DNA of 64,000 bases, from IMG/VR virus record IMGVR_UViG_3300037722_001090; one strand, 5' to 3'. Every line of letters starts with the position of its first letter. Positions within the stretch are counted from its first letter, which is position 1. This document shows positions 9,999 to 31,816 of the stretch, piece by piece. A model generated the notes under the pieces. That model was not told where the DNA came from, made no database searches, and worked only from the letters and a program-made list of their open reading frames with translations. A program made the translations under genes and the position numbers. The DNA comes from a virus. Its lineage: Duplodnaviria; Caudoviricetes.

Positions 9999-10579
9999 TG
10001 GCAAAAAAATATAAAGTAAATGTTGCTGGACATGAAATCATATTTAGAGATATTTATGCTGAAGAGTCTGATAGGTTTATTTGGGCAATAAGGAAGAAAG
10101 ATCCTATAGCTGAAGAGTTAGTATTTAGAGAAATACTTCATGAATCATGTGATATAAATATTGATGAGTTACCAGCAGGAGTAATTCCCACTATAGTCTA
10201 TAGTGCTATTAAGCTTTCTGGTTACTTTCCAAAAGAATCAGACATTCCTAACATAATCGATAATGCAAGGAAATCAATACAGAATAATTTCTTCTCTATA
10301 TTCTATGCGACTATCATTAAGGCACAGCCTTCCTATAGGATAGATGAGTTGCAGAAAAAATCACTAGATGACCTACTTGCAATATATGCATTCAGTGAAA
10401 AGGTATTAGGTAAAGAAACTATTAATACTGATGAGATGCGCAAGACTCTTAAGAAAGAAAAAGAAAAAGAAAAAGGCGTTGCTAAGTCTGCAGGCGGACT
10501 AAGCAGTATTTCTACAGAAGAGCTTGAGTTAGTTAAGAGTATGATTAGTTCCGAAGAATTTAACTCAGAGATGTTTTAA
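9998..10579 (+). CDS. Tail assembly chaperone 2 (paralogue of chaperone 1 with C-terminal extension)
   Basis: 193 aa, TAATG-coupled at both ends. ELPAGVIPTIVYSAIKLSGYF matches chaperone 1; the extra helical C-domain is like the T part of G-T chaperones. Confidence 0.58.
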   Translation: MAKKYKVNVAGHEIIFRDIYAEESDRFIWAIRKKDPIAEELVFREILHESCDINIDELPAGVIPTIVYSAIKLSGYFPKESDIPNIIDNARKSIQNNFFSIFYATIIKAQPSYRIDELQKKSLDDLLAIYAFSEKVLGKETINTDEMRKTLKKEKEKEKGVAKSAGGLSSISTEELELVKSMISSEEFNSEMF

Positions 10580-13500
10580 TGACACAACCAATTAATCCAA
10601 ATCCATTTATATTAGCCATAGATACAGAAGTATCTGGATTACCTACTGACTTTTATGCAACCAGAAGACTTGGTGATCCTATTGATCTTAATATGGATAA
10701 AATCATGAAGTCATTTGGAGCTGTAGATATATTCCAGGTAGGTTTTATAGCTAATGGAAGTAGACAGCATATTGACGTAACAAACGCTAAGCTTGGCACA
10801 CAAGACAACTTATCTTTTGTTATGAAGAAAGATCACAGCTATGTAGGTCCGGATGGAAAGAAGGGTATATATAAGAAGGGTGGAACTGTAACTTCAACCC
10901 GCAACGGGATAACTGACTTTATACGAGGCAAGCACAGTAAGTTATCTTCAAAGCTAGCAGATAAATATGAGAGAGATGCTCTCCCTAGCTTACTTAAGAG
11001 AAGTATGCAAGAAACAGCTGTATTAGATAATGGATCTGTAATACAATCTATGCCTATGAAGCTTAGAAATAAGTCATATGAAGAGACTGCTAAGATTGCT
11101 AATGATAATGGGTTCTTTCATAAAAAAATTAATCAGGCTACTTTTATTTCTAAAAGAGATGACTCATTATATTCTATAATAGACAACCTTCTTGCACATG
11201 GATCAAAAAATTCACCAGCAGAATTTAGAGCTTGGAATCCACAATTTGATGCTAGTGTAATATTGGCTACATTACAAAAATCAGGACATAAAGACTTAGT
11301 AGATAAGTTTATTAATCAATATAAAACTGGTCTATTAAACATACAAGGTATAGAGGATAGTTGGCATAAAGTCTTATGGAAACTCATAAAAGAAAATCCA
11401 GATATTGCAACAACACCAAAAATAGGTATGCATCCAATAGCTGCAGCCGCTACTGGTCGTCCAGGTGCCACTGCAAACACATTTGAGGAGTTTAGACATT
11501 CAACATACAGTTGGAAACAAGACAAGCTAGCTAAGTGGTTCAACTTAAAGAACATTGATCATATTGCATCTACAGACATATTATCCTCTGTAACCTTTGA
11601 TGACATCATGCAAGGTGTAATTAAGAAAGCTGAAAGTGAATCTGGAATGACTTTTGCTCAGCTATTTGATAATCCAAATACTGGCGATTTATTTACCAGA
11701 GCACTTAATTCCAGTATGAACACTATGCATAATAATAACAATACTGGTACCGCAAGAAGACTATTAGGTGAAATAGCAGATGATGCAGCAGCAACACATA
11801 CATTTCATAGAAGAAACTTTGCTAGCTGGTTTGGGTCAGATATTACAACAAGAAGTAGAGCTAAGTGGAGTAAGTATCCTGGTATTATTGGTGCAGCATT
11901 AGTTATAGCTGGTGCTACTTTTTTTGGTAGAGGTGATGAGAAGGTAAGCATTAGTGATGGAAGCGTTGGTAAATCTGGTAAGAATTCTAAGATTGGCAGG
12001 GGCGTAACTGCAGATATGGACACTGATAGTCCGTATATTGGCACAGGCGTAGCTAAGGCAATGTTTGCAGGCATTGTTGTGCCTGGAATTACCATGGCTG
12101 CAGTAGGTTATGGTGCAGCACAAAGACATCCGATGTTAGGTTTCAATCCACAGAAACCAACTACATTTAAAGAGTTATATAAGCAAGGATTAAGTACTAT
12201 TAGATATGGTATTAAAACAGTAGAAGGACAATTCCCTTTAGCTAGGGTTTTTGGTATGGGTGCTATATCTGACTATGTACTAGGTAGTAGAAGCTATTGG
12301 GCAGATGCTGACGGCAATGGTATTGGAAGAACACTCTCTGGTAAAAAAAGACCAGGAAGATGGTTAGCGGCTGAAAGTTATCTAGACGATAAAGGCAAAG
12401 TAGTAAACAAAAATAAACTTATCATGACTGACCTTTTAAAAGATATACGTAAGGCTGATGAGGAATTATTTCATGCTATCGTAAATGGACTGGATCCTTC
12501 TGACATAGGTAAAGATGATGGAGGTAAAGTAGTTGTACGTAAGCAAGTTAGGTTTGCTAATACTACAGGAAGAAATACTATTGTTCAAGTAACTGAAGAC
12601 CATACTATCAATGGCATATATCATAAAGGTACACCATTTAGTAGAACAATTGCTATAGATGCAGCTCTTATGAAAATGAGAGATAGGCCACCTCAGTCTG
12701 CACGCCTAGCTAACAGAACGGTAGTTAATCCATCTAATGGAAAAGTATCACGCATACAAGGTCCGCATGTTACAAGCTCTATTGCACATGAGATAGCAGC
12801 TGGTCAGTTATATAAAAGCGGTAAATATGTAAAACCAGACTACAATGATTATATGAAAAGCTTAGACATGCCAGGATTTGCAAGCAGCAGTGAAATGGGC
12901 AATAAGGCATGGAGAGGTATGGAATTTGTACGTCACTTACTTGATCTAAATGCTAAAGGTGTTGGTGAAAAAAGTAACGTTTTCTATCCAGGCTTATCTC
13001 AAGAACTTGGTAGAGCAACTCATGTATTGTCTAATAGAACAGTTGGTGCATATGCTAAGGGTGCTGGAGATTATTTATTTGGTAATATGGACAAGTTCCT
13101 TGAAAGCCCTTTTGAGTTTTTAGGAGTTAATACTGAAAAGTTTACTGGATTTGCAAACAGACTGAAAGCCTCTAATTATATAACATCCAATATTGCAGGT
13201 AAAGTAATGTCTGCTATTGAAAGACCACATCTTGGTTTAGGATATGCTAGATATGGAAACCCTGCAAAGTACATGGGTGCATTTGCAGCTAAACGTGTAT
13301 TGCCAGCTATGATTGCATATAATGCATTCGGATTAGTAGATCACGCATTAGGTGCTGCAACTATGTCTCCAACTGGTCGTGGACCATTTACTGAGATTCC
13401 AATTAAGGCATTTGAAGCTGCGTCATTAGCTTATACAAAACTATCCGATATAACAGGACTAACTGACTGGGCTAAATGGCAAGATAGAGTAGCTCCTGGA

Positions 13501-16470: not shown

Positions 16471-16483
16471 ACGGAGTTAACAA

Positions 16484-19400
16484 ATGGCAAACAATCCATA
16501 CTATGAAGAAAATAGCGGCTTTGGTAGTGTATTAAAAGGTGCATCTTTTGCTGGCGCAGCTGGTGCATCTTATATGGCATATAAGAACCCTGAAGCTACT
16601 ACCCGTGTATTTAATCGTGTAGTTAATTCTGTTGCACCACTAAAAGCACCTGAGCTTAATCCATATCAAAGCAACATAGTTAGTGCTAGAGAGGCAATCT
16701 TCAGTACTATGGAAGCCAGAAATATACGTAGAGTAGCTTTAGATAAAGATATGCAAGCAAGAGCTTTACAGACAATCGGTAATGTAAATAACTGGGGTAC
16801 TGTAAGTGCTGTAGGTGCTGGTATAAAAGGTGGCAAATCTGATTCATTTAAAAGCCTAACTGATATTCTAGACATAGAAGGTAATGAAATAGGGACAAAA
16901 ATACATAACGCACTAGAGAAGAGATTTAATTCTAAAATCGATGCTCCTAAATTTAGTGGAACAAGAGGAACCTGGAAGATAGCAGGAGAAGATTTGTCTA
17001 TTGATTTCTCTAAAAAAGGACTAGATTCAGGACTAGGAAATTCATGGTTCAAGCGCGTTGGAGAGTCTTATTATGCTTCACCTTATCAGTCTAAAATGGC
17101 TAATCGTGGCGGAGGGAAGCTTGGATATGATGTAATGAGTCCAAATGAATTTGTATTAAATGTGCTACAAGAAGAAAATGCTGGGAGTGGAAGACTGGCA
17201 TATGTAGAGAGTCCTACTAAGTTTAGGAACGCATATGAAAAGGTAATAGGAGAGAAAGTTACTGGACTAAGTGGACATGACGATGCTGTTAAGTATGCTG
17301 TTCAGCAAGTACGTAAAGAAATAGAGTTAGGATCTAATGCTAGTGTTAGCAATGTAAGAACTATGCAAAAGGCTTTAAAGAAAGTATTTAATACAGATAC
17401 TATGTTTGTAGAAACTGACCCAGTAAAGCTTGGCTTATTTGGCAGTGAAGTTCGCGTAGAAGAATATTCTAGATATATACTTGGTAATACAGAACCTGAA
17501 TTTAAAGGTGTAGGTTCAAACCGCGTAGGCAGAAACATGAATAGTCTTACAGGAGGAAGCGTAAACATAGAAGGTAATGCACTTAAAGTAGCATATAATA
17601 TTCCTCATGATGCAAGAACTGATAGTTCTTTAATTAGGATTGTTAATGGTAGTGGCGCTACGTTGAAAAGTAAAAATGCTACATTTATGCAAAAAATGAT
17701 GTCTCTGTTTGGTGGATATAGGCTTGGACAAGATCCTTCATCTGAATTTGCATGGGCTGTTAGACCTACTGTTCTTCCTGTTATTGCGGAAGGAGATAAG
17801 TCTATGAAGGGTGCTTTATGGGCAGATGATAATACCGTTATTAGAAAAAATGGCACTCAGGGTATTTCTATGGGAAAGGAATATTTCAGAGGAACAGGAA
17901 CAAAAAGAATTGAAGCACACAGACTTGAAACATTAAGGCATATGTCTTTTATTGACGACACTAAGATTACTGAAGCTGCTGCTTCAAGCTCAGATTATGT
18001 AAAGGGTAAAATATATTCTCAGCAAAATAAAGGCATTTATAATATGACAATGGCTCTTAACCCGTTTTCTGAAGAGTCTATTCAAGTAAGTTCAGGTATG
18101 AGTAAGCATATGAAAGTTCTTATTCCAAAAACAGCTACTGTGGACACAATTGCACTTAAAGGAGAAGAATCGTATAGGAGGTCGCTACTTACACTAATGG
18201 ATGCAAACGGTGTATTAGATAAGGAATCATTTACTATAAAAGAAATAATGGAAAGTAAAGCTTTATCAGAAAGAGTTAGTACTGGTCAATCCAAAATTAA
18301 GATAGGAAGAGGGACATATCTAGGCAGAAAGAACATAGGTATGGAAATATCTAATGCTGAAGACTTTTACTCTACATTTGAAAGAGACGGAGAGATTATT
18401 AAAGCAAAAGTAGATATGTATATAGACAGTACAGACTTTAATCAAATGGTCGAATCAAATCAAAGAATGATGGGTGAAGGACATAAGCATGCAGGAGGAG
18501 TTAAATATATAGCTAAGGCCATGGATGACCCTGCTAAAGTTGCACTTACTGGTATAAGAGCCCGTGGAGCTTATGCAGTTGGCGATGACGGATTACTTAA
18601 TAGTTTATATGCAAGTGCAGGACTAGGTAATAAGCAAGAAGCTACTATTTCTCTTGGTATGTTTAAAAAAACATTCCCTAAGATTTCTAATAACAGCCTT
18701 CTTCTTGGTAAAGATTCACCTGAACTATTACACTTTACACAATCTGCACTTGGATGGCAATCCTTACAAAGTAGCATGGATATAACATTAAGTAAAAATG
18801 CCGCTGATCATTTTGTCGGTAAATACGTAAATGATGCATCAAAAGTATTAGGCAATCAAGATTATTATACTGGAAGAGGTGCATCTAAAAAGTTTAGCTT
18901 TAGTAAGGCTATGCGAGATGGAGCAATATCTTTTACTCAAAGAACAGAATCAGATGCTGCATTTGCACAGCAATATCAAGACACTGTACAGGTGCTTGGT
19001 ACTGCGCGAAGAGAATGGGGTAATAATCGTAAAGTTGCACACATAGAAAGCTTCTCTACGACTAATGCTAAAGATGCTGCTAAAGTTATAGATAATCAAA
19101 TTGAAGCAATAGACAATATGGGCAAGCTTGCAAAAGGTGAATATGCTGTAAGGCTATTTAATAAACAGGTAGATGCAAAAGAGCTTGGAGAACAAGCCTT
19201 AGTTAGGACAAGAGTATCACAAGGTAGTAGTGCTGGTCTTGGATCGACAAAAGCACTCACAATGGGTATTCTTGGAGGACTTCAACCTCAGGAACAAAAC
19301 TGGCTAGCTCTTGGTGGTGAATTTAATAAGATGCGTATTTCATGGAGAGATATGTATCACTTTACAGACAAGGCAGATATACTAAGAGATATTTCAGTTA

Positions 19401-21973
19401 GAAGCTTAACAGATGCAGATACTAGCGCAACTATGATTAAGCTAATGAGTGACTCTGCTGTAGGGCATAATGTTACTTCTGCTGTTAATGCATTTGAGAA
19501 GAAATATGGTAAAATTCCAAAACTAAAAAAGACAGAAGAGATTTTGGAAATGATAGGTGGTGATGCCGCTATGGTTCCAGGTGCTATTAGAGATCCTGAA
19601 TTCTTAGCAACAAAAAGCTTCTTAGGTAATAAAAAGAATGAGTTCGGTTTTATGGTCGAAATGGGTGAGCGTAATGTTTATATTCCAGGTAGAGATGTTT
19701 GGAAAGGATATGCAACTGATGAGGGGATGGCTACATTTGATTCTTTATTTGCAGAAACTCATAACTTACTTTTGAATAAAGCTCTAGGATCGAACATACA
19801 TCAAGATAGAGATGAGTACCAAAATTGGGTTAAAAGAATAATCAATGAAACAGGAAGCTCAAAAGAAGGACTACAAAGAACAATTTCATTATCTATTGAC
19901 CATGCAGTTGCTGCAAAACATATAGAAGATCCATCGTTTATTCATAATAAAATTATGATTGGTGCTATGGAGAGCTGGAAAGGTAATGCAGACAAGAAGT
20001 TAATTCCTGGATATGTAGCAAAAGCAGAAGCTCTAGAAAATACATTTGGTAATATAGCTAAAATCGGAGAAAAAGATTTTAGTTCAAGTATTAAACAGCT
20101 TATAACTGACACTAAGACAATAGCTAGTAGCCCTGGAAGCAGACAGACAATGCAAGAGGTTCTTACCTCACAATATGGTGAAGATCATTTTCTACAAAAG
20201 TATGCAAATAGGATGAGTGCAAACATGGACAAGGAAGGTGTAGCCAGTCTTGTTAAGGATATTACAACGGATCATGTTGCTAGTAGTAAGCTACTTATGA
20301 GCAAAATAAAAGAATATGCATCAACAGGGAATGAGTCTTTATTTGGAGAGATAGACACGCTTGTAGGAGGTGCACATAAGATTTTTGCCGTTAGACATCC
20401 TACACTTTATACTGGATCTTATTCAGGATTAATAGCTCTTATTGATAGTCAAATTGAAGGAACACAAAAAATAGCAATAGCACACAGAGCTAGTAAAAAT
20501 ATGGCGTCGGACTGGGACGGAGATACAATTAACTATGTTGACCTTAGATCTAAACTGGGAAGACAAAAAGCATTGAATCTTATTAATACGGATCAGAAAA
20601 TTGCATATGGTGTAATGAGTTCTAAAGTGCAAGACAGAATGACTGGAATTTTAACTGGCAAAGGAACTAATGCTCCATCCGAGGCCCTTGCTTTTTTTAA
20701 CTCACTAGACTCCCCTGCAGCACTAAATACAGTAGCTAAAAATATTTTACATGATGCTCCTGGCTCAACAGCTATTTCATCGTATTTTACTAAAGCAATG
20801 ACCGGTCAATTTAATATCTCTGCAATGGAAACAAAAAACTATATAAGAGATTTATCTGATAGTAAAAACTTATCACAAGAGCATATGAAAGAGCTAGGTC
20901 ACTACTTTGGAGTAATGGCATCTAAGAACTCTGAGCAGGAAGTAATCTCAGCTAAGCATGCAGAGACATGGCTTAAGAATATGAACAAAAGTGAAAGTAA
21001 GATGAACTATCTTACTAATTTAATAGGCGCTCAATCTGGACAAGAACAAATAGCGGAGTCTATTAGAGAGCTTGGATCAGTACATCCTATTGCTCAGATG
21101 GCAGCAATGAACGCCAAAGGTAAAGATAATGAGAAGTTTGCTGGTATGGTTTCTGACTTTATGGATTTTAAGGTAGGATGGAAACAGCTTGAGCAGCCAA
21201 GATTCGAAACTATGTGGGAAGGACTAGGTCTTGAAAAATCTCATGGAGTTAATACCTCAGCAGCTTGGGACATGTACGACTCTTGGTTAAAAGAAGGTGA
21301 ACATATTTTTGGTAATAAAATGGAATCTTCTGTTGCCGCTGGTATATCAGAACTCAGCTATTTAGAAGTTACTAAGCAGGCAATGTTTGATAAGAGATCT
21401 TCTGCAAGTGAAAGTATAGAGGCCATGTTTAGCCGTGCATTAGAGTTTATGAAAATGAGCGATAATGATAGGGCTGGAGATGCTGCAATGGGCGTATTAG
21501 ATAAGCTCGGATATAGGAAAACAGCACTACAGATGCTCACTTTACATGAGCAACAATCAAATATGGCACAAGCAACTCGCAAGATAGCTGGCTTTGATAC
21601 AGTATCTAAAGCAGCACAGTGGATGGTAGAAAAACCTGTTAGATTAGCTGGAGCTGTAGGTATTGGCTTATTAGGCATGACTGCAATTAACCTACTAAGC
21701 GGAGATGGTGGCCTTGAAGATCCAAATGATTTACCTAGTGTTAGTAATCCGGCATTTACAGGCGGTGGTGGAAATGGTATGATGAATACACATGGAGTCC
21801 AGCCACACGTAGGCGTAAACGCTAATGTAAACTTATTAACAGACAGTAACGATAATCCACAAAGTGCACTTAGTTACATTTCTAATATGTTTGGCTATAG
21901 TCAGGGCAGCGTTGTATCTGTTATGCATGATGGTGAAAACCCATACAAAAAAGATATGATGTATTATAATTGA
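16484..21973 (+). CDS. Putative single-chain two-barrel (double-psi beta-barrel) DNA-dependent RNA polymerase, probably virion-packaged
   Basis: 1829 aa. Beta-like motifs MALNPFSEESIQVS (E530/E531) and GHKHAGGVKY (K668,K674). Beta'-like motifs FAVRHPTLY (R1304) and HRASKNMASDWDGDTIN (D1343,D1345,D1347). Possible trigger-loop EQEVISAKH (H1492). Confidence 0.8.
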   Translation: MANNPYYEENSGFGSVLKGASFAGAAGASYMAYKNPEATTRVFNRVVNSVAPLKAPELNPYQSNIVSAREAIFSTMEARNIRRVALDKDMQARALQTIGNVNNWGTVSAVGAGIKGGKSDSFKSLTDILDIEGNEIGTKIHNALEKRFNSKIDAPKFSGTRGTWKIAGEDLSIDFSKKGLDSGLGNSWFKRVGESYYASPYQSKMANRGGGKLGYDVMSPNEFVLNVLQEENAGSGRLAYVESPTKFRNAYEKVIGEKVTGLSGHDDAVKYAVQQVRKEIELGSNASVSNVRTMQKALKKVFNTDTMFVETDPVKLGLFGSEVRVEEYSRYILGNTEPEFKGVGSNRVGRNMNSLTGGSVNIEGNALKVAYNIPHDARTDSSLIRIVNGSGATLKSKNATFMQKMMSLFGGYRLGQDPSSEFAWAVRPTVLPVIAEGDKSMKGALWADDNTVIRKNGTQGISMGKEYFRGTGTKRIEAHRLETLRHMSFIDDTKITEAAASSSDYVKGKIYSQQNKGIYNMTMALNPFSEESIQVSSGMSKHMKVLIPKTATVDTIALKGEESYRRSLLTLMDANGVLDKESFTIKEIMESKALSERVSTGQSKIKIGRGTYLGRKNIGMEISNAEDFYSTFERDGEIIKAKVDMYIDSTDFNQMVESNQRMMGEGHKHAGGVKYIAKAMDDPAKVALTGIRARGAYAVGDDGLLNSLYASAGLGNKQEATISLGMFKKTFPKISNNSLLLGKDSPELLHFTQSALGWQSLQSSMDITLSKNAADHFVGKYVNDASKVLGNQDYYTGRGASKKFSFSKAMRDGAISFTQRTESDAAFAQQYQDTVQVLGTARREWGNNRKVAHIESFSTTNAKDAAKVIDNQIEAIDNMGKLAKGEYAVRLFNKQVDAKELGEQALVRTRVSQGSSAGLGSTKALTMGILGGLQPQEQNWLALGGEFNKMRISWRDMYHFTDKADILRDISVRSLTDADTSATMIKLMSDSAVGHNVTSAVNAFEKKYGKIPKLKKTEEILEMIGGDAAMVPGAIRDPEFLATKSFLGNKKNEFGFMVEMGERNVYIPGRDVWKGYATDEGMATFDSLFAETHNLLLNKALGSNIHQDRDEYQNWVKRIINETGSSKEGLQRTISLSIDHAVAAKHIEDPSFIHNKIMIGAMESWKGNADKKLIPGYVAKAEALENTFGNIAKIGEKDFSSSIKQLITDTKTIASSPGSRQTMQEVLTSQYGEDHFLQKYANRMSANMDKEGVASLVKDITTDHVASSKLLMSKIKEYASTGNESLFGEIDTLVGGAHKIFAVRHPTLYTGSYSGLIALIDSQIEGTQKIAIAHRASKNMASDWDGDTINYVDLRSKLGRQKALNLINTDQKIAYGVMSSKVQDRMTGILTGKGTNAPSEALAFFNSLDSPAALNTVAKNILHDAPGSTAISSYFTKAMTGQFNISAMETKNYIRDLSDSKNLSQEHMKELGHYFGVMASKNSEQEVISAKHAETWLKNMNKSESKMNYLTNLIGAQSGQEQIAESIRELGSVHPIAQMAAMNAKGKDNEKFAGMVSDFMDFKVGWKQLEQPRFETMWEGLGLEKSHGVNTSAAWDMYDSWLKEGEHIFGNKMESSVAAGISELSYLEVTKQAMFDKRSSASESIEAMFSRALEFMKMSDNDRAGDAAMGVLDKLGYRKTALQMLTLHEQQSNMAQATRKIAGFDTVSKAAQWMVEKPVRLAGAVGIGLLGMTAINLLSGDGGLEDPNDLPSVSNPAFTGGGGNGMMNTHGVQPHVGVNANVNLLTDSNDNPQSALSYISNMFGYSQGSVVSVMHDGENPYKKDMMYYN

Positions 21974-21980
21974 GGTAGAT

Positions 21981-24900
21981 ATGGCAATTTCTAATAAAGA
22001 GTTTATTGATGTGCTTAAAGCAGAAGGCTTATGGCCACCACAGGCAAATGCTGAAGCAGCATATGGAGCAGTTGAGTTTCCAGTAGGAAAACTTAAAATT
22101 GATGGAGATGCCTCTTTTACATCTATTTATGTAATGGACGGAGATACCATTGAGTTACATAAGCCCGGATATGTATTTAGTACAACAGGAGATCATGGCA
22201 CAGTACCCGCCGAAGGCATGGATGGCATGGCAACCTCTCTTCGTTATTATGGCTTAGATACAAAAGAGACAGCAAAAGAGGGCACAGGTAAAGCTGCAGA
22301 GCCATATGCTAATTGGCAAACTAGGGCAAACTTAGCCTTATTTAAATATGCAGAAAGAACAGGTAAAAATGTTGATGTTACTGGATACAATCAAGATGCT
22401 TACAAGAGAACAGTTGCTGCAATAAATATTGATGGTACGGATGTAGCTGATCTCTTTGTACGAAATGGTATATCTGCCGCAGGTACCGCCGCAGAAGCAG
22501 GCTTTGTACCTGAAGGGGGGATAACTGTTCGCTCACTGCAAGAATCAATGAATGAGGCAGCAACTAAAGGCTGGGGTCTATGGAATAAAAATCAAATTTA
22601 TGATGTCTTAAGAGATGTAAATAAAGAGACTGAATATCTTGATGGTTATATTAATGATCGATTTGGTAAAGCTAAAAGCATGACAGACGATACTGTTAAG
22701 CTTGGAGACGTATATCTTGATATACCTCCTACACACATAAGTATTAATCAGTTAAGAACATCATATTCTACACCACAATTTGGTGGCGAATCAAAGCCAA
22801 CATCTACAAGTACAGCGCGAACAACTATAAAGCTAAACCTTATTTTTAATGGTGAAGACTCAGTAAACGATGATTTTAAAAGAATCTATTGGCAGTTTAT
22901 CTATTGTCCAATTAACTTACTGTATTCAAAAGATATATACGAGAAGGTTGTTTCAGATAATCCTTATATAGCTAGGATGAATACTGCCACAATTAACACT
23001 GAAGAATCGTCTTCTTCTAAGTCATCTTCGTATTTTATCCCTGTAACTATGGATAGTTGGACCGTATATACTATTGAGGGTCATCCAGGGTCTATTGGAT
23101 GTACAATACAGCTATCTATCTTTAACTATTCTGCATACTTTGAAGGTGCAGGTAATGGCGTTGAATACTATACATATAGTGATAATCCAGGAAAGCATGG
23201 TAATGCAGTTAGATACACTAAGCACCTAGAAGAAGCTATTCACCCATATAACCAATATATCATGAAGCACCTCGGTAATAGCATTCAGCACTTTGATGCA
23301 TCAGATAGTCGCACTCTTATTTTTAAGGTTGAAGATAATAAATCTAGATTTGAAGGTAAACAAGAAGATATTAATGAGGATGTTTCAGATTTATCTGAAT
23401 ATCTAAAAGTTATACTTGAATCAGAAGTTGATGAATTAATGGTTAATGGTTCTGTAACTTTTCATAATAACTTTGCATGGTTACCAATTATAGGATATAC
23501 GCAACCAACAGCACAGTATATTGGTCCTGGTGAAACCAATATGTCACTAAGTATTAGAACTAAAAACAATAAAACCATATCAGGACTATTAGCAACATTT
23601 GGTGAAATGGTTCTTGATAGAACTAAACATACATACTATGATGATAGATACTTAGTGTCCAACTCGCTGTCTAGGCTATGTAAGGCTTCTGTTTGTTCAC
23701 TACGTAATATCTCAATTACAAACGTAGATCATCACCCAGGATGGTCCGATATTAATATTCAGCTCTCTAAGTCTTCCTATGCAGATCATCAGGATGAAGT
23801 AAACCCAGCTGCAGAATTTGATGAATATTTTGGACTACAAAGGTTGATTAAAGCTGCAAATGTAGATGAGGTTATGGAGGCTCTTGAAAGAGAACTTAAA
23901 CTAGCTGACATGACAGATATATCTCTTCCTGCAGAAGATGATTTGCTAGGACAAATGTGTATACTCTCTGGTATAATAAATGCACATTCATACATTAGTG
24001 ATGAAGCATACCTTGGGTACAATGAAATACTTTCTAATATACGTGCTTTTAAAGCAACTATTAATGATAAAGACATGAAAGAGCTTGGATTTTCTAAGCC
24101 TCTTATGGGAGACATAAAAAGTCTAGAGGTAAAAGGTACGGACATAATTGATCGTATGTTCATTCAGTCTCTACCTATATCTGTAAAATCTGACCCTAAA
24201 CAAATGAAAGCAATAGTTGATTTCGAAACATACTATAATGCTAAGAAAAAAGCAGGTGTTGTTAATGAATTTGATTCTTTTGAAAGCGCACTTAGAGGAG
24301 ATAATTCTAAAGAGGGTTTTGAATTAAGAGCAGAGATGATAGATAGGTATTTACCTCTTGATGAAATGATAGATATGACAGGTACTAAAAATAAAATAGT
24401 AGATGTAAATAAACACCTATTTAATGCCTGGGAAGAGTATTGGGGAGATAGACATACAGTAAGGTCGCTAAGCAGTGTATATATAAAAGATTTATTAGCT
24501 AGTGGTGTGGACACATCAGTATATGATGAAGAAATGGAAAATATAGTATATAGGATACTTAGATCCATATCTAATGAAGGCATGATGTTAAGTTACCAGA
24601 AGGCTTGGAATCCGCTAGCTCTTTCAATGGCTCGTGGTCATGCAATTGTTTTTAAGTTTACTGGTACAATATTAGAAGCACAAATAATTAAAGCAGCCCT
24701 TAGGGTTGGAGATGAGACATCATCTATAATTGGAGAGGCAGCTAGTTTTGGTACGCATGGATCTAAAGCAAGAAAGTTTTTTAGTTTACAAAACAATGTT
24801 AAATATCCATCTATTTCAGTAAAGTTAACTTGTCATAATAAGGATGTTGCATATAGTGAATATAGCACTAGTATGTCAGAGGCATCAAAAGAGGCATCAT

Positions 24901-27900
24901 GGTCTTTAGCTACTGCGTTTAGAGCTAAAAAAAGTAATGATGCTATATCTAGCTTTACGGGTAATGATAAGATTAACCAATCAGAAGTAAGTAAAGAGCT
25001 AGCTCTTTTGCGCGAGGATATGGAAGATGTTGCTTTTAGCAGAATACCTATGCCTCATGCAGCACATAGATACTTTCCTTTTATAGATCAGTATATTAAA
25101 CATAGCGAGCTTTTCTCTGCAAGCATGGGTGATTGGTTTAGAAATACAGCAGAAGACGATCCTTATTCATTTTTTGAAGAAGTAAGCGAAACTGTTGAAA
25201 ATTCAGTATCACCGCTCATGAACAATAAGGGGTGGACATCAACTTATCTTCAAAAAAGATATGGAAATACATATATAAACAAAATCAATGAAGATATTAA
25301 TGACCCATCTAAAATAATGGAAGCACTTTCTTTACCTGTATCATCGAAGGATTCAAGCGATAGAAATAAAGATGGATCACTTGCAAGACTTAAAGACGGT
25401 AAGATGGATACATCTATGCCTAAATTTAGTAAAGATATGGTAACAGACTTGCTTGGTAACTATAAGTATGATGAAGACATTGACAATAAGCCATATAGTG
25501 GAACTGTTCATTCAGGAGTATTTATTGCAGGATTCTATGATGGTGCAAAAGATGGTAAGAGAGCAAAAGATTTTAGACAAAATACATATGATACACATTC
25601 TATATGGCTTGATAGTGACGGTGCAATAAGCGGTCTTTATAATAAGCTAAATAGAAATCAATTAGTACCAAACGGAAACATGTTAGTAGAGGCTTCAGAA
25701 GCTCGCGAAACTAATGTTGCCTCAACATTAATTAATGGTGTAGGAAGAAGTTTAGCTGGTCCAATAGATACATCAGTTAAGTATGCTGGTGTATTTAAAT
25801 CAACATCACTTATAATGGCGCTTAATAAAAATCCTAAGATGTTCATGATAGAAACAGATAGGATACCTCCAGCACAATTTGCTCTTGGTCCAGATAGTGG
25901 ACTTAATATTGTTCAGGCTGATGAAAAAATATTGACTATGTTTGTTAGAGCTATTACATCTATACATAAAGGTGGCAGTGCTACAGATTATAAGAATATT
26001 GGATGGTCAGATCGTGCATCTAGACATTATGCTAAGGTTTTAGTTGCAGAAATTAAAACTAAATTAAGAGCAAGTGGATATTCAGACAGTTGTATTTACT
26101 ATGCTAAGCAATCAGAAGTTTCTGCTTTTGTAGCACAGAAAGAAGCTATATCATATGAGGAAGGTGCACCAGAAGAAATCTTTATGAGGGCACTAAGATT
26201 AAGAGCTGACAGTAATTTGCCTGTAGCTGACTTTGTTGATGATCATACAAAAAATATAGTTGCAAGACAATCTATGGCTTCATTAATGTCAACTACATGT
26301 TTAGAGAATGCTTTCCCTACTTATAAGCTATACATTATTGAAGAAGATACATCTGACATTAGGTATTTTTCACTAGACGATTATTATGATCTAAGAACAG
26401 CACAAGACTTAATGATTATAAAATCAAAAGATAATCCAGTACATATTCTAAAAGGTAGAATAATAGTAGATCCAAGATACATAACTGTTACAGATAAGGT
26501 AAAACAAAAAGTATCAAAATACAATGAAGATAGTGAACATGAACTAAATGAGCCATCATTACAGTTTATTGATACTAGGCTTGAAAACTACTTCAATAAA
26601 GGTTTTACACCTTTAAGAGAAGGTATGCGAGTTTGCGTTAAGCTTGGATATCATACTGATCCAAGAATGCTTGATACAATATTTATTGGTACTATTACTG
26701 GATTAAAAGGTAACATGACTTCTGGTGTATATGAACTTGAAGCAAAAGGTGATGGAAGAGAATTATTATCTCCTCCTAGTCCAGAGCTAAGGCCTAACGT
26801 AAGTGGTAAGAACTTTGCAGAGGTAATATCAAAGATACTTAGAACTAATCCAAGTATTATTCACTTTGGTAAAACATATGGATCTTTCATTGAAAAATTC
26901 TCTAGAGATCACTATACATTACTTGCAATAGCTAAGAATGGACTTCTGCAAGGAAGCTCAATGGCAGGTGGTGGACTAATGGGCACAATTGCAGTATCAT
27001 TGTCAATGGCATCTCCACAGAGAGCTATGTATAAGGTTGGAGCTAGAGTAATTGCTGGAATAGTAGGTATAGGTGCTGGTGGACTTATGGCTCAACTATA
27101 CAGCCCAGTACCATATAGTTTAATACAGAAAAGTAGAGATAAGTTTAAGCACGAAGCATTAGCGCAGTATAGTGGACATATATTCAAAGGGCTTTGGTTT
27201 TCAGAGGAGTTTAAAGCTGCAAACTTTTCACAAGCAAAAAAATGGATTCAAGGACATACATTCGATCCAGCAAAAGCGGCAAGAGAGGTTGCAGAGATAT
27301 CTTACAATACACTTAAGTATGGTAATGATCCTATTGATGACAATATATTAGCAGTTGATATTTGGCAAACAGGAATGACTCCATGGAAAACATTCAATAT
27401 GCCTGTTAATGGAGCAAGAACCGTATGGGACATTCTTGTAGATATAAAAAGAATGTATCCTAACTTTGCACTAGACATTAGGCCATATGGCAATAGATCA
27501 ACATTATTTATGGGGCCTTATGAGTCTGAAATGTGGAGAACAGATGACCCTCTACAGGCAATGGCTCCACAGTTATATCAAATGAGCAACGGAGCACCTT
27601 GGGCAGATGGACAGGCTTACGCTGAGCATACTAAGGCTGCTATTGAAAATATGGTTACTAGAGATCAGTTTCATAATGCTACTCCAAATACACGTAATAT
27701 AGCGCCTAGAGAGCCATTCCAAAGAACACACTTAGTGTCTTCCTTTAGCGATATAATTATGAATGGAGTTAGATCTACACCATATAGGGGATGGAACGAT
27801 GTAATAGTTTCTTACTCTAAAGATCCAGATGATGATGATTCGCCTCCAATTGTAAATCAAGTTGTTAATGCACAGCTAGATCCTAAAGCTAAAAGGACAA

Positions 27901-29396
27901 AGTATGTAAACCTTGACTGGACAAATGATAAGCAAATGGCTAATGCATATGCTTTAGGTTTCCTTAAAGAAGGTGTTGGTAAAATGTACGGAGGGACACT
28001 AAGCATTAGAGGTAACTCTAAAGTTGAACCACACGATAAAGTATATATTTGCGATTCAGTTAATAAAATGTTTGGATGGATAGAAGTAGAAACAGTAATA
28101 CATAAGCTAGACATGAATACTGGATTTACTACACATATTGTTCCAAACATGGTATGTTCAATTAATGATGATGCCTATACAACAACAAGTCAGTTGTTCC
28201 GTAAGAAAATGCTTGGCAGTGTAGCTAAATTAATTTTACATACAGCAGCCGCTTATCCTGCAGGTATTGCACTGACTGCCGTGTTAGCGCCAGTATTAGG
28301 CTCTGCCGCATTTATAGTCGGTATTGTACTTGGTACAGCTGCTCTTGGATATACTGTGTATCAATCAGCCAGTGCAATAAAAAGTAAAGCTGAAGCTATT
28401 ATGACCGAGGCTACAGCTAACGGACTTATAAAAGAAGAACAGGAGTATATTCAGCATAAGCTTCAAAACATACTAATGGTGTCTACTATGAAGTCATCTT
28501 TCGATTTGGGTATATTCTCACACTATGTATTGAAGTTTACTGGCGGACCAGGTAACATTAAAAGGAATGTTCTTGCATACACAACTAATACGGCAGAAAG
28601 AGCAGCGCTTATAGAAAAGGTTTCAGCGGGATCTAAGGCAAGGTTTGCAGTTGCAAGCAATTATATAGCTAAGCTCAGCAATAAAACTGGTGTTACCTCT
28701 ACATCAAAAATGAAGAAAATACTAGATGATGCAGCTAAAAAAATGGGAAGAGCTCCAATTAACTTTGACGACTACGAAGTAAAAATGGCTGCTGCTGTAA
28801 CACCAGAAGAAAGAGTTCTTCAAAGAAAGATGTTAGCTATAGAAATTGAAGATTTAGTTAAAGAAGCAGCTAATGATTTTTCTGACGATGTTAAGACTAA
28901 AATTACAAGCACAATAAACGATCCTGCTGCACTAGATAAACTAACAAACTCTTCAGTCATTGAACCTGAGATACCAAAAGCAGGAGATGGTAAGGTTAAT
29001 ACTAGAGCTGCCGCAGCTAAGCCATTTAAGCCAATAGCAACCAAAGCTAATCTAAAAATAGCAGCTGGTGGATTCTTAGCCTTCCTAGCACTTGGAGCCG
29101 AGTTATTACCTTTAGGTTTTGAAACTATTGCTATGAATGCAATGCTTAAGTCTAATGTAATATTTTGTTCACCATTAACACACAAGTCAAGTCAAATGAT
29201 GACTGGACTAGAAGGCTATATTAATCAGTCTTCTTATCTACACCTAGGAAGTATGATTATTCATGCTAAGGACTTTATGAATGATGCTATTGATTCTGTT
29301 AGGAATTGGGACCAGGTAGTACAAATAGGTGACTCTTCATATTCTAAACTTACAAATGTGTTCGGTAGATCAGTTGATGATCAGGGAGGTATGTAA
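21981..29396 (+). CDS. Giant baseplate hub-like protein with N-terminal staphylococcal-nuclease (SNase)-like domain
   Basis: 2471 aa. Residues ~45-201 contain VMDGDTIEL, LRYYGLDTKET, DAYKRTVAAI, LFVRNG and AATKGWGLW. The late region has a hub signature (MYGGTLSIRGNSKVEPHDKVYI...IEVETVIHKLD...GFTTHI). Followed by the spike gene. Confidence 0.72.
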   Translation: MAISNKEFIDVLKAEGLWPPQANAEAAYGAVEFPVGKLKIDGDASFTSIYVMDGDTIELHKPGYVFSTTGDHGTVPAEGMDGMATSLRYYGLDTKETAKEGTGKAAEPYANWQTRANLALFKYAERTGKNVDVTGYNQDAYKRTVAAINIDGTDVADLFVRNGISAAGTAAEAGFVPEGGITVRSLQESMNEAATKGWGLWNKNQIYDVLRDVNKETEYLDGYINDRFGKAKSMTDDTVKLGDVYLDIPPTHISINQLRTSYSTPQFGGESKPTSTSTARTTIKLNLIFNGEDSVNDDFKRIYWQFIYCPINLLYSKDIYEKVVSDNPYIARMNTATINTEESSSSKSSSYFIPVTMDSWTVYTIEGHPGSIGCTIQLSIFNYSAYFEGAGNGVEYYTYSDNPGKHGNAVRYTKHLEEAIHPYNQYIMKHLGNSIQHFDASDSRTLIFKVEDNKSRFEGKQEDINEDVSDLSEYLKVILESEVDELMVNGSVTFHNNFAWLPIIGYTQPTAQYIGPGETNMSLSIRTKNNKTISGLLATFGEMVLDRTKHTYYDDRYLVSNSLSRLCKASVCSLRNISITNVDHHPGWSDINIQLSKSSYADHQDEVNPAAEFDEYFGLQRLIKAANVDEVMEALERELKLADMTDISLPAEDDLLGQMCILSGIINAHSYISDEAYLGYNEILSNIRAFKATINDKDMKELGFSKPLMGDIKSLEVKGTDIIDRMFIQSLPISVKSDPKQMKAIVDFETYYNAKKKAGVVNEFDSFESALRGDNSKEGFELRAEMIDRYLPLDEMIDMTGTKNKIVDVNKHLFNAWEEYWGDRHTVRSLSSVYIKDLLASGVDTSVYDEEMENIVYRILRSISNEGMMLSYQKAWNPLALSMARGHAIVFKFTGTILEAQIIKAALRVGDETSSIIGEAASFGTHGSKARKFFSLQNNVKYPSISVKLTCHNKDVAYSEYSTSMSEASKEASWSLATAFRAKKSNDAISSFTGNDKINQSEVSKELALLREDMEDVAFSRIPMPHAAHRYFPFIDQYIKHSELFSASMGDWFRNTAEDDPYSFFEEVSETVENSVSPLMNNKGWTSTYLQKRYGNTYINKINEDINDPSKIMEALSLPVSSKDSSDRNKDGSLARLKDGKMDTSMPKFSKDMVTDLLGNYKYDEDIDNKPYSGTVHSGVFIAGFYDGAKDGKRAKDFRQNTYDTHSIWLDSDGAISGLYNKLNRNQLVPNGNMLVEASEARETNVASTLINGVGRSLAGPIDTSVKYAGVFKSTSLIMALNKNPKMFMIETDRIPPAQFALGPDSGLNIVQADEKILTMFVRAITSIHKGGSATDYKNIGWSDRASRHYAKVLVAEIKTKLRASGYSDSCIYYAKQSEVSAFVAQKEAISYEEGAPEEIFMRALRLRADSNLPVADFVDDHTKNIVARQSMASLMSTTCLENAFPTYKLYIIEEDTSDIRYFSLDDYYDLRTAQDLMIIKSKDNPVHILKGRIIVDPRYITVTDKVKQKVSKYNEDSEHELNEPSLQFIDTRLENYFNKGFTPLREGMRVCVKLGYHTDPRMLDTIFIGTITGLKGNMTSGVYELEAKGDGRELLSPPSPELRPNVSGKNFAEVISKILRTNPSIIHFGKTYGSFIEKFSRDHYTLLAIAKNGLLQGSSMAGGGLMGTIAVSLSMASPQRAMYKVGARVIAGIVGIGAGGLMAQLYSPVPYSLIQKSRDKFKHEALAQYSGHIFKGLWFSEEFKAANFSQAKKWIQGHTFDPAKAAREVAEISYNTLKYGNDPIDDNILAVDIWQTGMTPWKTFNMPVNGARTVWDILVDIKRMYPNFALDIRPYGNRSTLFMGPYESEMWRTDDPLQAMAPQLYQMSNGAPWADGQAYAEHTKAAIENMVTRDQFHNATPNTRNIAPREPFQRTHLVSSFSDIIMNGVRSTPYRGWNDVIVSYSKDPDDDDSPPIVNQVVNAQLDPKAKRTKYVNLDWTNDKQMANAYALGFLKEGVGKMYGGTLSIRGNSKVEPHDKVYICDSVNKMFGWIEVETVIHKLDMNTGFTTHIVPNMVCSINDDAYTTTSQLFRKKMLGSVAKLILHTAAAYPAGIALTAVLAPVLGSAAFIVGIVLGTAALGYTVYQSASAIKSKAEAIMTEATANGLIKEEQEYIQHKLQNILMVSTMKSSFDLGIFSHYVLKFTGGPGNIKRNVLAYTTNTAERAALIEKVSAGSKARFAVASNYIAKLSNKTGVTSTSKMKKILDDAAKKMGRAPINFDDYEVKMAAAVTPEERVLQRKMLAIEIEDLVKEAANDFSDDVKTKITSTINDPAALDKLTNSSVIEPEIPKAGDGKVNTRAAAAKPFKPIATKANLKIAAGGFLAFLALGAELLPLGFETIAMNAMLKSNVIFCSPLTHKSSQMMTGLEGYINQSSYLHLGSMIIHAKDFMNDAIDSVRNWDQVVQIGDSSYSKLTNVFGRSVDDQGGM

Positions 29397-29770
29397 TGAG
29401 TGACTTAAGAGATTTAGATAGTGGAGTAAATGAAGCTAAAGGAGATATCGGTAGGTGGCAAGGCATAAATAGTCAGGCCAGACAAGTCTCAATAGCAGAA
29501 GTAGTAAGTGAAGATACTTCAAAAAATATCTTTATTATCTACTTTAAGGATGATAAAGTTGAGGTTCCTGCAGTATTGTTGGGGAACCTCAACGGAATCA
29601 TTGGATCAGCTACTCCAGAGGTTGGAGAGTTAGTATTAGTGGTGCATAATGAAACATCAGATGCTATAATTATTGGACTATTGGATAAGCAAAGATCTAT
29701 TCCATGGGCAGATAACAGTAAGTCAAGTGCATATAATAAAAATGGCATTATAGGTGCAATGGGGAATTAA
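29396..29770 (+). CDS. Central spike N-terminal OB-fold protein (gp5/GpV-like)
   Basis: 124 aa right after the hub; SIAEVVSED...PEVGELVLVVH...AIIIGLL is the typical spike OB-fold pattern. Confidence 0.6.
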   Translation: MSDLRDLDSGVNEAKGDIGRWQGINSQARQVSIAEVVSEDTSKNIFIIYFKDDKVEVPAVLLGNLNGIIGSATPEVGELVLVVHNETSDAIIIGLLDKQRSIPWADNSKSSAYNKNGIIGAMGN

Positions 29771-29772
29771 TA

Positions 29773-30168
29773 ATGACAATTAAGAATACAGAACTCAGCA
29801 GCTTTGGCACACAAAACGACAAACAAGATCCTAGTCAAGCTCCTATGGTAAATCCGGATTTAGATGAAAGAAAGATATCAACACGCACTGGTAATGCACA
29901 AATTATTATTAAAGATAATATATTGCTATTATCAAATAGAGCTAATGGAATAATGATTAATGAAAGAGGAACAGTTGTATGTAATCCCTTACATATAGCA
30001 ACAGATCCATCTACTACTAGGATAAACTCATTCTGGGTAATTAATGACGAAATTATGACAGGATTACCATCAACAATTTATACACCAATGCCATTATTAA
30101 AATATAAACGTCCCGCAATAGCAGATCAGATTTCTGATTTAGCAAAAAAGCTTGCTGCAATAGGATAA
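29773..30168 (+). CDS. Putative spike-associated baseplate protein
   Basis: 131 aa with short beta-strand repeats (NAQIIIKDNILLLSNRANGIMINERGTVVC), between the spike OB-fold gene and the gp25-like gene. Confidence 0.4.
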   Translation: MTIKNTELSSFGTQNDKQDPSQAPMVNPDLDERKISTRTGNAQIIIKDNILLLSNRANGIMINERGTVVCNPLHIATDPSTTRINSFWVINDEIMTGLPSTIYTPMPLLKYKRPAIADQISDLAKKLAAIG

Positions 30169-30170
30169 GC

Positions 30171-30184
30171 GTTATTAACAAATA
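30171..30184 (+). promoter_or_regulatory. Candidate late-promoter/operator motif GTTATTAACAAATA
   Basis: In the short gap upstream of the baseplate wedge genes; matches 2440 and the minus-strand copy inside the intron. Confidence 0.35.
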
Positions 30185-30198
30185 GTCAGGAGTAAACA

Positions 30199-30600
30199 AT
30201 GCTAAGTATTTTAGATATGAAAACAGATAATTCTGATGATATCATTATTAATGGTGACATTGAATTTGAAAACGATACGCTTCTTTCTACAATAAAGACA
30301 GCTGAAAGGCGTATTACTGCTAGATATGATGATTTTCAACTGAGTAATATATCAGCTGGACTCGAGAGTCATGTATGGCATAGAATTAATGAGTCTACAA
30401 AATATGCGATCAGCGAAGACATAAAGCGTGCATTAACATTAAATGGACTTATTGGTTTAAATGAATATAAAACCATTCTTCTGGATGAACTTGCAGATGG
30501 TAGTATGCCTATTATCATTAAGTTCACATCACCATATATTTCATCAAACTACTCCTTTAGTACAATAGTAAATCAACAGAATCAGAGGTCTTATAATTAA
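30199..30600 (+). CDS. Baseplate wedge/sheath initiator (gp25-like)
   Basis: 133 aa; DMKTDNSDDIIINGDIEF...IKTAERRI...AISEDIKRAL pattern; directly upstream of the baseplate J-like gene; CAGGAG SD. Confidence 0.6.
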   Translation: MLSILDMKTDNSDDIIINGDIEFENDTLLSTIKTAERRITARYDDFQLSNISAGLESHVWHRINESTKYAISEDIKRALTLNGLIGLNEYKTILLDELADGSMPIIIKFTSPYISSNYSFSTIVNQQNQRSYN

Positions 30601-30601
30601 T

Positions 30602-31816
30602 ATGGCTACCTACAAAGATAAGCAAGACAGAATTTTAAAGGTTATGTCAGAGAGAGCTGGATTTTCTAGCCTAGTACCTGGCACAAAAGGCTATCAACTA
30701 GCAGAGGCGTTTGCATATGAACAAATGTTACAAGAGTCTGAAATTGAAGAGTTTACTAGAAAAAATAGTATCTTAACTGCTAAAAAGCAAGAGCTTGATG
30801 ATATTGGTGAGAATTTTTTTAACGTTAAGAGACTTGGAAATATTAAACCTTTTATTACGTCATCAATGAAAGCACTTAAGTTTTACGTTGATACAGCTCA
30901 GTCATTTGGCCAAATAAATGTCATAAAGCAGGCAGGCATTGAAATACCTCAAGACATTATAATCCCAGAAGGTGTAATTATAAGTGGCACAAAAGATGGT
31001 ATTGATTATAAGTTTAGAGTTTCAAAAACAACGATATTACCTAAAGATGATAATGTAGCATACGTGCAAGCAGAGTTAATGCAAGGTCCACTTGCACAGA
31101 TACCAGCGAACATATTAAAGATGCATAGTTTTACTAAATATACACAAGCAACAAGTAATATGCTTAAGGTTACAAATCCAGTTCCAGTTATGAATGGAAG
31201 GCAATCAGAGAGTGATGATAACTATAGGTTTAGAGTCTCTAATGCATTAAGTGCATTTCCAAGAACAAACACAACAGCTATACATCAATTACTAACTGAA
31301 CTTCCAGCTATATCTAACGTATATATAGAGCCATCATCTAATGGTGGTGGAACATTTACTGTATATGTACAAGGTACAACACCAATTACTGGGGATGAAA
31401 TAATCCGTGAAGCAGAGATGGTTCTTGAGCGAGTTATTAGTCCATGGATAGTATCTTATACTGTAGTTAAGCCAAGTTATATTGGTATTCAGGCATCTAT
31501 AGATATGGTTCTTAGAGATAGTTTTAACTCCAATATTACGTCTTTAATATCTCAAAAGGTAACTAATTATCTTGATAACTTTGATGGGGATACATTTTAT
31601 ATAAACTCCATATTAAGTCTTGTACAAGGGATGCATCAAGATATACTAGATGTATCATTTAACTATGTTAGGGTTTATTCTGGGTCAGAAGATATAAGAT
31701 CTTATGAGGAATTAGACTTTACCGTAAATCCAAACCCCATAATTAGCATTAGTATTAAAGAGAAGTTAATTTCAGAGCCTATCTCTAATCCAATTACATT
31801 AACTATAACGGTTTAA
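30602..31816 (+). CDS. Baseplate J-like wedge protein
   Basis: 404 aa with ELDDIGENFFNVKR, VTNPVPVMNGRQSESDDNYRFRV and GGGTFTVYV baseplate-J motifs. Confidence 0.82.
   Translation: MATYKDKQDRILKVMSERAGFSSLVPGTKGYQLAEAFAYEQMLQESEIEEFTRKNSILTAKKQELDDIGENFFNVKRLGNIKPFITSSMKALKFYVDTAQSFGQINVIKQAGIEIPQDIIIPEGVIISGTKDGIDYKFRVSKTTILPKDDNVAYVQAELMQGPLAQIPANILKMHSFTKYTQATSNMLKVTNPVPVMNGRQSESDDNYRFRVSNALSAFPRTNTTAIHQLLTELPAISNVYIEPSSNGGGTFTVYVQGTTPITGDEIIREAEMVLERVISPWIVSYTVVKPSYIGIQASIDMVLRDSFNSNITSLISQKVTNYLDNFDGDTFYINSILSLVQGMHQDILDVSFNYVRVYSGSEDIRSYEELDFTVNPNPIISISIKEKLISEPISNPITLTITV

Follow-up and report, generated by a model that had tools for sequence, protein, structure and literature searches.

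P0001, a giant open reading frame (ORF) of 2,471 amino acids (aa), was read from the ORF list and its translation at positions 21981..29396 (+) of a 64-kb stretch of phage DNA (IMG/VR record IMGVR_UViG_3300037722_001090). The protein was found to carry a staphylococcal nuclease (SNase, or thermonuclease) domain at its extreme N terminus, and on grounds of homology it is a giant baseplate hub of the 0305phi8-36 gp147/ME3_37 family. The stretch, hereafter called the window, comprises the 64,000 nucleotides analyzed and belongs to an IMG/VR viral contig of 107.9 kb with a CheckV completeness of 52% and a guanine-plus-cytosine (GC) content of 36%; this contig is a fragment of an uncultured, contractile-tailed jumbo phage from sediment. 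From the N terminus to the C terminus, P0001 consists of the SNase domain, a conserved domain A, a variable region, a hub-type domain, and a hydrophobic C-terminal region. It is almost certain that the first ~215 residues constitute a domain of the SNase/thermonuclease family, and the Ca2+-ligand and catalytic residues of this domain are complete, giving a site that appears to be catalytically competent.

Identity and fold of the N-terminal domain

The initial annotation had claimed an SNase-family domain and had quoted four motifs, all of which were found in frame: MDGDT (residues 52 to 56), LRYYGLDTKET (residues 87 to 97), DAYKRTVA (residues 139 to 146), and ATKGWGLW (residues 194 to 201). 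Pfam, profile, and structural comparisons all bore the claim out. In the HMMER search against the Pfam SNase model that had been proposed as a check, PF00565 (gathering cutoff, 21 bits) matched residues 87 to 203 with 26.1 bits in the whole protein and with 29.7 bits (E value, 9.6e-7) when residues 1 to 260 were used, and the same model scored 31.3 bits when the phage's contig was searched in all six frames. The envelope of a family hidden Markov model (HMM) placed the domain at residues 31 to 213 (22071..22619, +), so that the span originally assigned to it, 22113-22583 (residues 45 to 201), was correct in position and slightly too small.

Comparison of the single sequence with Protein Data Bank (PDB) chains gave a weak match (E value, 0.03), in which R88..D93-T94-x-E96 was already paired with R35..D40-T41-x-E43 and DAYKR with DKYGR. 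A profile made from an alignment of 18 sequences (A3), consisting of hub N termini and six stand-alone SNases, matched residues 9 to 145 of the Staphylococcus aureus nuclease with an E value of 8e-30. The same alignment was used for an AlphaFold2 (AF2) model of residues 28 to 215, which had a predicted local distance difference test score (pLDDT) of 84.3 and a predicted template modeling score (pTM) of 0.81; it took the place of an unusable single-sequence model of residues 1 to 260 (pLDDT, 34). In a Foldseek search of the PDB with the alignment-based model, all 50 listed matches were staphylococcal nuclease (300 matches had E values of ≤0.001), with a best E value of 4.8e-8, a probability of 1.00, and target template modeling scores of 0.66 to 0.73. 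In a viral structure library, the model was best matched by a protein of 1,342 residues, encoded by an uncultured tailed phage, in its SNase-like domain. The sole oddity of the fold was a lineage-specific insertion of 25 residues (residues 62 to 86; 22164..22238, +), which forms a loop separating the DGDT strand from the R88 strand and is gapped in most relatives (alignments A1 and A3); model residues 46 to 53 (protein residues 73 to 80) had a pLDDT below 50.

The nuclease-like stretch is the true N terminus of the protein, as indicated by a GAGG sequence seven bases upstream of the ATG at 21981 and by the stop codon of the preceding giant ORF a few bases earlier. No signal peptide was found at this N terminus. 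In sequence the domain is very divergent, as judged from the small number of homologues recovered: a word-indexed search with the SNase region returned, among giant proteins, P0001 alone and none among proteins of 105 to 335 aa, and an exhaustive phmmer search returned only 12 matches. Among 50,697 phage records, neither the locus nor the SNase domain was matched by megablast or tblastn, and a search for related loci in viral contigs found none. Automatic annotation in databases already names proteins of this kind "endonuclease YncB (thermonuclease family)" or "thermonuclease family protein."

Conservation of the active site

In the profile alignment, D53-G-D55-T56 (22137..22148, +; the D53 codon occupies window positions 22137-22139) was paired, DGDT with DGDT, with D19-G-D21-T22 of the S. 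aureus nuclease. The segment R88-YYGL-D93-T94-K-E96 (22242..22268, +) aligned with FRLLLVDTPET and supplied the equivalents of R35, D40, T41, and E43, and R143 (22407..22409, +; DAYKR aligned with DKYGR) was the equivalent of the catalytic R87. In the S. aureus numbering, we take D21, D40, and T41, together with D19, to be the Ca2+ ligands, R35 to be the phosphate-binding arginine, and E43 to be the general-base glutamate, and we take R35, E43, and R87 to make up the catalytic Arg/Glu/Arg set of the SNase family. At a mean column identity of 24% in A3, the only invariant columns were those of D53, D55, R88, E96, and R143, and D93 was conserved in >90%; T94 (T41) and Y141 (Y85) were retained as well. 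The site had been described at the outset as apparently intact, and this description was sustained by the presence of D53/D55, R88, D93, T94, E96, and R143.

The nuclease as a module of the hub family

A search with residues 1500 to 2200 of P0001 identified 33 other giant proteins, 1.5 to 3.2 thousand aa in length and encoded on contigs of up to 218 kb, some of which were binned with Bacteroidota. The family shares three conserved blocks, namely, residues 236 to 640, residues ~1410 to 2110, and the hydrophobic C-terminal part. Pfam SNase matches above the cutoff were obtained for the relatives P0003, P0005, P0009, P0019, and P0036, and with the family HMM, most full-length relatives were found to have an SNase-type domain at the N terminus. 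Among the metagenomic relatives, 16 of the 21 N-terminal domains examined had the full catalytic set.

The mean pairwise identity was 22% for the SNase domains versus 47% for the hub domains, and the two sets of pairwise identities were correlated (Mantel r, 0.81; permutation p, 0.0002). This correlation fits a long shared inheritance of the two domains, in which selection has been concentrated on the active site, and the SNase is probably an old, mostly vertically inherited module of the hub family; a recent independent acquisition of the N-terminal copies was rejected on the basis of the Mantel coefficient. The module has moved within the protein, as indicated by an internal copy in Acinetobacter phage ME3 and by a C-terminal copy, intact and with the full catalytic set, in P0033. 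The latter, a distant hub homologue of 2,705 aa, also had a glycoside-hydrolase-like domain (PF08924) and, in a by-eye reading, an apparent intein with a Hint portion and a homing-endonuclease-like insert starting at about "CLSKTKGW."

In a subclade formed by P0013, P0014 to P0017, P0023 to P0025, and P0030 to P0032, the N terminus was a different module of ~250 aa, for which neither Pfam nor the Atlas search gave a match. This module may be another cassette in the same slot; a divergent SNase was ruled out at this position (hhalign probability, 0.2%).

Relatives with an intact N-terminal SNase usually also carry a C-terminal SLT, glucosaminidase-like, or tail-lysozyme domain, and the hydrolase domains on the relatives' hubs included SLT, glucosaminidase, Phage_lysozyme2, NlpC/P60, or M23. 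Since the two domains are carried together, the SNase is an additional module and not a substitute. The initial suggestion of a nuclease standing in the place of a lysozyme did not hold, because the relatives have both and an N-terminal SNase is the common state in the family; replacement of the wall hydrolase by the SNase was rejected on the same co-occurrence in relatives and in ME3. What is unusual in P0001 and in its closest relative, P0003, is the absence of a detectable wall hydrolase, whereas nearly all relatives carry one: in P0001, Pfam found the SNase alone, and in P0003, no wall hydrolase was detected at the end of the protein. When the C-terminal hydrolase domains of 16 relatives were used as queries, nothing comparable was found in the 107.9-kb contig. 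A wall hydrolase may be encoded in the missing approximate half of the genome, or it may be too divergent for detection.

The baseplate hub

The best-conserved part of the family is a hub-type domain, putatively of the gp27/gpD/Mu gp44 kind, which in P0001 covers residues 1440 to 2110 (26298..28310, +). The initial annotation had placed the nuclease at the N terminus of a baseplate hub; the N-terminal nuclease on a hub-family protein was confirmed, and the two domains proved not to adjoin, the hub-type domain beginning ~1,400 residues downstream of the nuclease. An alignment of the hub domain (A2) comprised 32 sequences with a mean identity of 37%. Blastp comparison with ME3_37, annotated as a "baseplate hub protein" and as a homologue of the 0305phi8-36 hub protein, gave two matching blocks (E values, 1.6e-12 and 3.4e-14), and comparison with WH1 gp094 gave an E value of 1.6e-23. 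By tblastn, matches were obtained to the hub genes of the cultured jumbo phages ME3, WH1, Edson, KLEB27-3, and MTATph1, which infect Acinetobacter (ME3), Bacillus (WH1, Edson, and KLEB27-3), and Moorella (MTATph1); the matched genes were annotated as baseplate hub, virion structural protein, or endolysin. For 0305phi8-36 itself, an HMM comparison has placed gp147 in the T4 gp27/P2 gpD family (Hardies et al. 2007; PMC2147016).

Pfam gave no match to residues 1440 to 2110 even at an E value of ≤1. A profile search of the PDB gave one weak match, 9euf_E (the hub-like ORF56 of a staphylococcal myovirus; E value, 0.018), over the conserved C-terminal motif, and in the Atlas protein-language-model feature search, the block scored 0.94 to GpP-like and Gp44-like hub clusters, which serves as a lead. 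The gp27-type assignment is thus a putative one, drawn from homology to annotated hubs, from synteny, and from the literature.

Conserved domain A (residues 236 to 640; 22686..23900, +), delimited by the blastp blocks over these query residues and present in nearly all family members, matched PHROG 20474 (E value, 4.5e-9). Its Atlas features scored 0.85 to 0.90 to clusters of the tail-tube-initiator, Dit_like, and DNA_circ_N types; the recognition threshold was not reached, and as a lead only, domain A is possibly tube-initiator- or Dit-like. Hydrophobic segments, defined by a Kyte-Doolittle value above 1.5 in a 19-residue window, were located within the hub domain at residues 1686 to 1708 (27036..27104, +) and further toward the C terminus at residues 2084 to 2128 (28230..28364, +) and 2358 to 2384 (29052..29132, +).

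Gene neighborhood

The genes around P0001 follow the order tail sheath, giant genes, P0001, three small ORFs, and Baseplate_J, which is the hub position expected in a contractile-tail module; the same order was found on the contig of P0003 and in ME3, WH1, and KLEB27-3. Upstream of P0001 lie the tail sheath gene (3200-5935), a major-head-like gene (6724-7983), and giant genes occupying 10579-21973. The baseplate context is provided by a Baseplate_J-like wedge gene (30602..31816, +) located 1.2 kb downstream of P0001, which matched Pfam Baseplate_J (E value, 1.3e-14) and PHROG 6, baseplate wedge (E value, 4e-23). Nearly identical DNA was found in sediment and soil metagenomes from at least five studies; no RNA data set was among the sequencing runs listed.

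The first of the giant genes encodes 1,963 aa (10579-16470, +) and had no Pfam or PHROG match at the thresholds used. The family HMM found no second SNase-like domain in this ORF or elsewhere in the 107.9-kb contig. The second, a 1,829-aa ORF directly upstream of P0001 (16484-21973, +), gave nothing in a Pfam search; at residue 1343 it has the motif "ASDWDGDT" (DxDGD), which is beta-prime-like, or RNA-polymerase-like, and a single hydrophobic segment spans residues 1719 to 1740. Between P0001 and the Baseplate_J gene are three small ORFs of 124, 131, and 133 aa (29396-30600, +), none with a Pfam match; only the third had a weak PHROG match, to which no function is assigned in that database. 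From their position, spike, tip, or gp25-like proteins should be among these three. A similar-sized trio (125, 147, and 126 aa) follows the hub gene on the P0003 contig.

Site of action and alternative explanations

The domain could well be a virion-tethered, Ca2+-gated nuclease that acts at the cell surface or in the wall/periplasm, with extracellular DNA as its likeliest substrate, a proposal for which we hold belief and doubt to be about equal. Characterized SNase-family enzymes are secreted or surface bound, and their need for Ca2+ is far above the free Ca2+ of the bacterial cytoplasm; the activity that marks the family is a Ca2+-dependent cleavage of DNA and RNA that leaves 3'-phosphate products. 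The hub protein would be assembled into the tail tip in the cytoplasm, where Ca2+ is low and the SNase site would be essentially silent, so that no immunity protein would be needed. Activation would be confined to places with free Ca2+, namely, the exterior of the cell or the cell-wall/periplasmic zone. The hub would reach that zone together with the wall hydrolases that are carried on the same polypeptide in the relatives. Cutting of DNA or RNA there would be nonspecific, and the likeliest target would be DNA, extracellular or in the matrix, that keeps the phage from the cell surface of its hosts in sediment and soil. A surface or wall nuclease is favored because the SNase family needs high Ca2+ and acts outside the cell and because the hydrolase partners act on the wall. 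Several points weigh against this proposal. The N terminus could face the tube lumen or the outer face of the baseplate; a nonspecific nuclease beside the DNA exit channel would threaten the phage's AT-rich genome (36% GC); and the neighboring giant gene with its RNA-polymerase-like DxDGD motif would fit a "delivered payload" and would favor action inside the cell. In addition, four relatives (P0007, P0008, P0011, and P0012) keep the domain and have lost the catalytic residues, so that the fold may also have a structural role, and the hubs of KLEB27-3 and MTATph1 match the family HMM and carry Q or N in place of D40.

One alternative is an injected effector, in which the hub would be ejected with the giant tail-module proteins and the SNase would act on host DNA or RNA in the cytoplasm, with host shutoff, nucleotide salvage, or destruction of competing elements as its role. 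Three consecutive giant genes (1963, 1829, and 2471 aa) stand where a tape measure and hub are expected, the middle one has the RNA-polymerase-like DWDGD motif, the three strongly hydrophobic segments of the hub would be compatible with membrane insertion during ejection, and the gene order is kept in a relative and in ME3. We nevertheless consider this explanation unlikely, since all Ca2+ ligands are kept and, from what is known of the SNase family, such an enzyme would be nearly inactive at cytoplasmic free Ca2+; the SNase of the relatives shares its polypeptide with peptidoglycan hydrolases, and in ME3 it adjoins an M23 domain, which points to the wall or periplasm; and an unprotected AT-rich genome would be destroyed by a nonspecific nuclease injected along with it. 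It is also improbable that the SNase forms one arm of a tail-delivered payload that is ejected with the upstream RNA-polymerase-like giant protein and acts past the outer envelope, either on competing phage or plasmid DNA in the periplasm or on host nucleic acids in the cytoplasm.

The SNase domain is an OB (oligonucleotide/oligosaccharide-binding) fold, and OB-folds are common as structural parts of tail spikes, the N-terminal OB-fold of T4 gp5 being an analogue. A mainly structural or binding module of the hub, serving in assembly, as a plug, or in the binding of nucleic acid or Ca2+, with catalysis vestigial or irrelevant, would account for the four relatives with replaced catalytic residues and for the variation at the D40 position, which includes, besides the substitutions in the Bacillus and Moorella phage hubs, an I in P0018 that replaces one Ca2+ ligand. 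We regard this explanation as unlikely, too. At a mean identity of 22%, the only invariant columns are those of the catalytic and Ca2+ residues, which are present in the 16 fully equipped hub domains and in ME3, and a domain with a purely structural role would not keep these residues. The remaining candidate, a phosphodiesterase retargeted to teichoic-acid-like wall or capsule polymers and working as a depolymerase alongside the wall hydrolases, would suit the wall-degrading domains on the same protein and the Gram-positive hosts of some relatives. It is, however, very improbable: P0001 retains the nucleotide-binding residues R88, R143, and Y141, and the module occurs in phages of Acinetobacter (Gram negative) and of Bacillus and Moorella (Gram positive) as well as on Bacteroidota-binned contigs, a distribution that a universal substrate such as nucleic acid fits better. 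We know of no SNase-family enzyme that acts on polymers of this kind.

Implications

To our knowledge, nearly every enzyme carried at the tip of a phage tail is a hydrolase of the wall or capsule. A conserved, apparently active, and nonspecific nuclease on a jumbo-phage hub lineage, with hosts ranging from Bacillus and Moorella to Acinetobacter and with members among uncultured sediment phages, would point to an unstudied step of infection, for which the clearing of extracellular DNA and the delivery of a nuclease are candidates. New here are the findings that, across the hub family, strict conservation is confined to the catalytic site, that the SNase module coevolves with the hub, and that an intact copy is present in the cultured and tractable phage ME3, which makes the question directly testable. 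Were it active on virions, the nuclease would be relevant for the use of phages against DNA-rich biofilms, and if the payload explanation is true, the hub family would represent a new class of nuclease effectors that are injected and carry their own Ca2+ safety switch.

Comparison with known systems

No experimental work on a thermonuclease or SNase in connection with a baseplate, hub, virion, or jumbo phage was found in the literature. In its fold and catalytic constellation, the domain resembles S. aureus nuclease A (PDB 1SNC and 1EY0), from which it differs in sequence (~20% identity), in the 25-residue loop insertion, and in the replacement of K84 by A140. Nuclease A is a secreted enzyme of 149 residues, whereas the phage domain has no signal peptide and is tethered in a 2,471-residue protein. 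In its placement, the domain resembles the lysozyme of the T4 gp27-gp5 complex and the muralytic enzyme ORF56 of phage K, which are likewise enzyme domains borne by the hub or spike at the center of a contractile tail; T4 gp5 and phage K ORF56 cut peptidoglycan, whereas the P0001 domain belongs to a nuclease family.

A cultured counterpart is ME3_37 of Acinetobacter phage vB_AbaM_ME3 (2,329 aa; L002:6766-13755; "baseplate hub protein"/"peptidase"), which has homologous hub subdomains and whose gene follows two giant genes and precedes wedge genes. Its SNase domain scored 53 bits with Pfam and keeps the equivalents of D19, D21, R35, D40, T41, E43, and R87. Unlike that of P0001, which is at the extreme N terminus, the ME3_37 domain is internal (residues 1126 to 1241), and it is followed after 60 residues by a Peptidase_M23 domain (residues 1301 to 1401), whereas P0001 has no detectable wall hydrolase. 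The public annotation of ME3_37 omits its SNase domain. WH1 gp094 also matched Pfam SNase (25.9 bits).

An N-terminal staphylococcal nuclease domain was described earlier on the hub homologue of BtI1, a prophage-like element of Bacillus thuringiensis israelensis, and its utility was called obscure (Hardies et al. 2007; PMC2147016). The BtI1 protein was described there as a giant, "hyperplastic" T4 gp27-type hub; like P0001, it has an SNase at the N terminus, and the two belong to the same wider family, being linked through ME3_37. They differ in host phylum and have only distant sequence similarity; unlike the BtI1 element, P0001 is from an uncultured sediment phage and has no detectable wall hydrolase. 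The fusion of an SNase to a baseplate hub is therefore not unique, having been in the literature since 2007, and P0001 is a further, well-preserved case.

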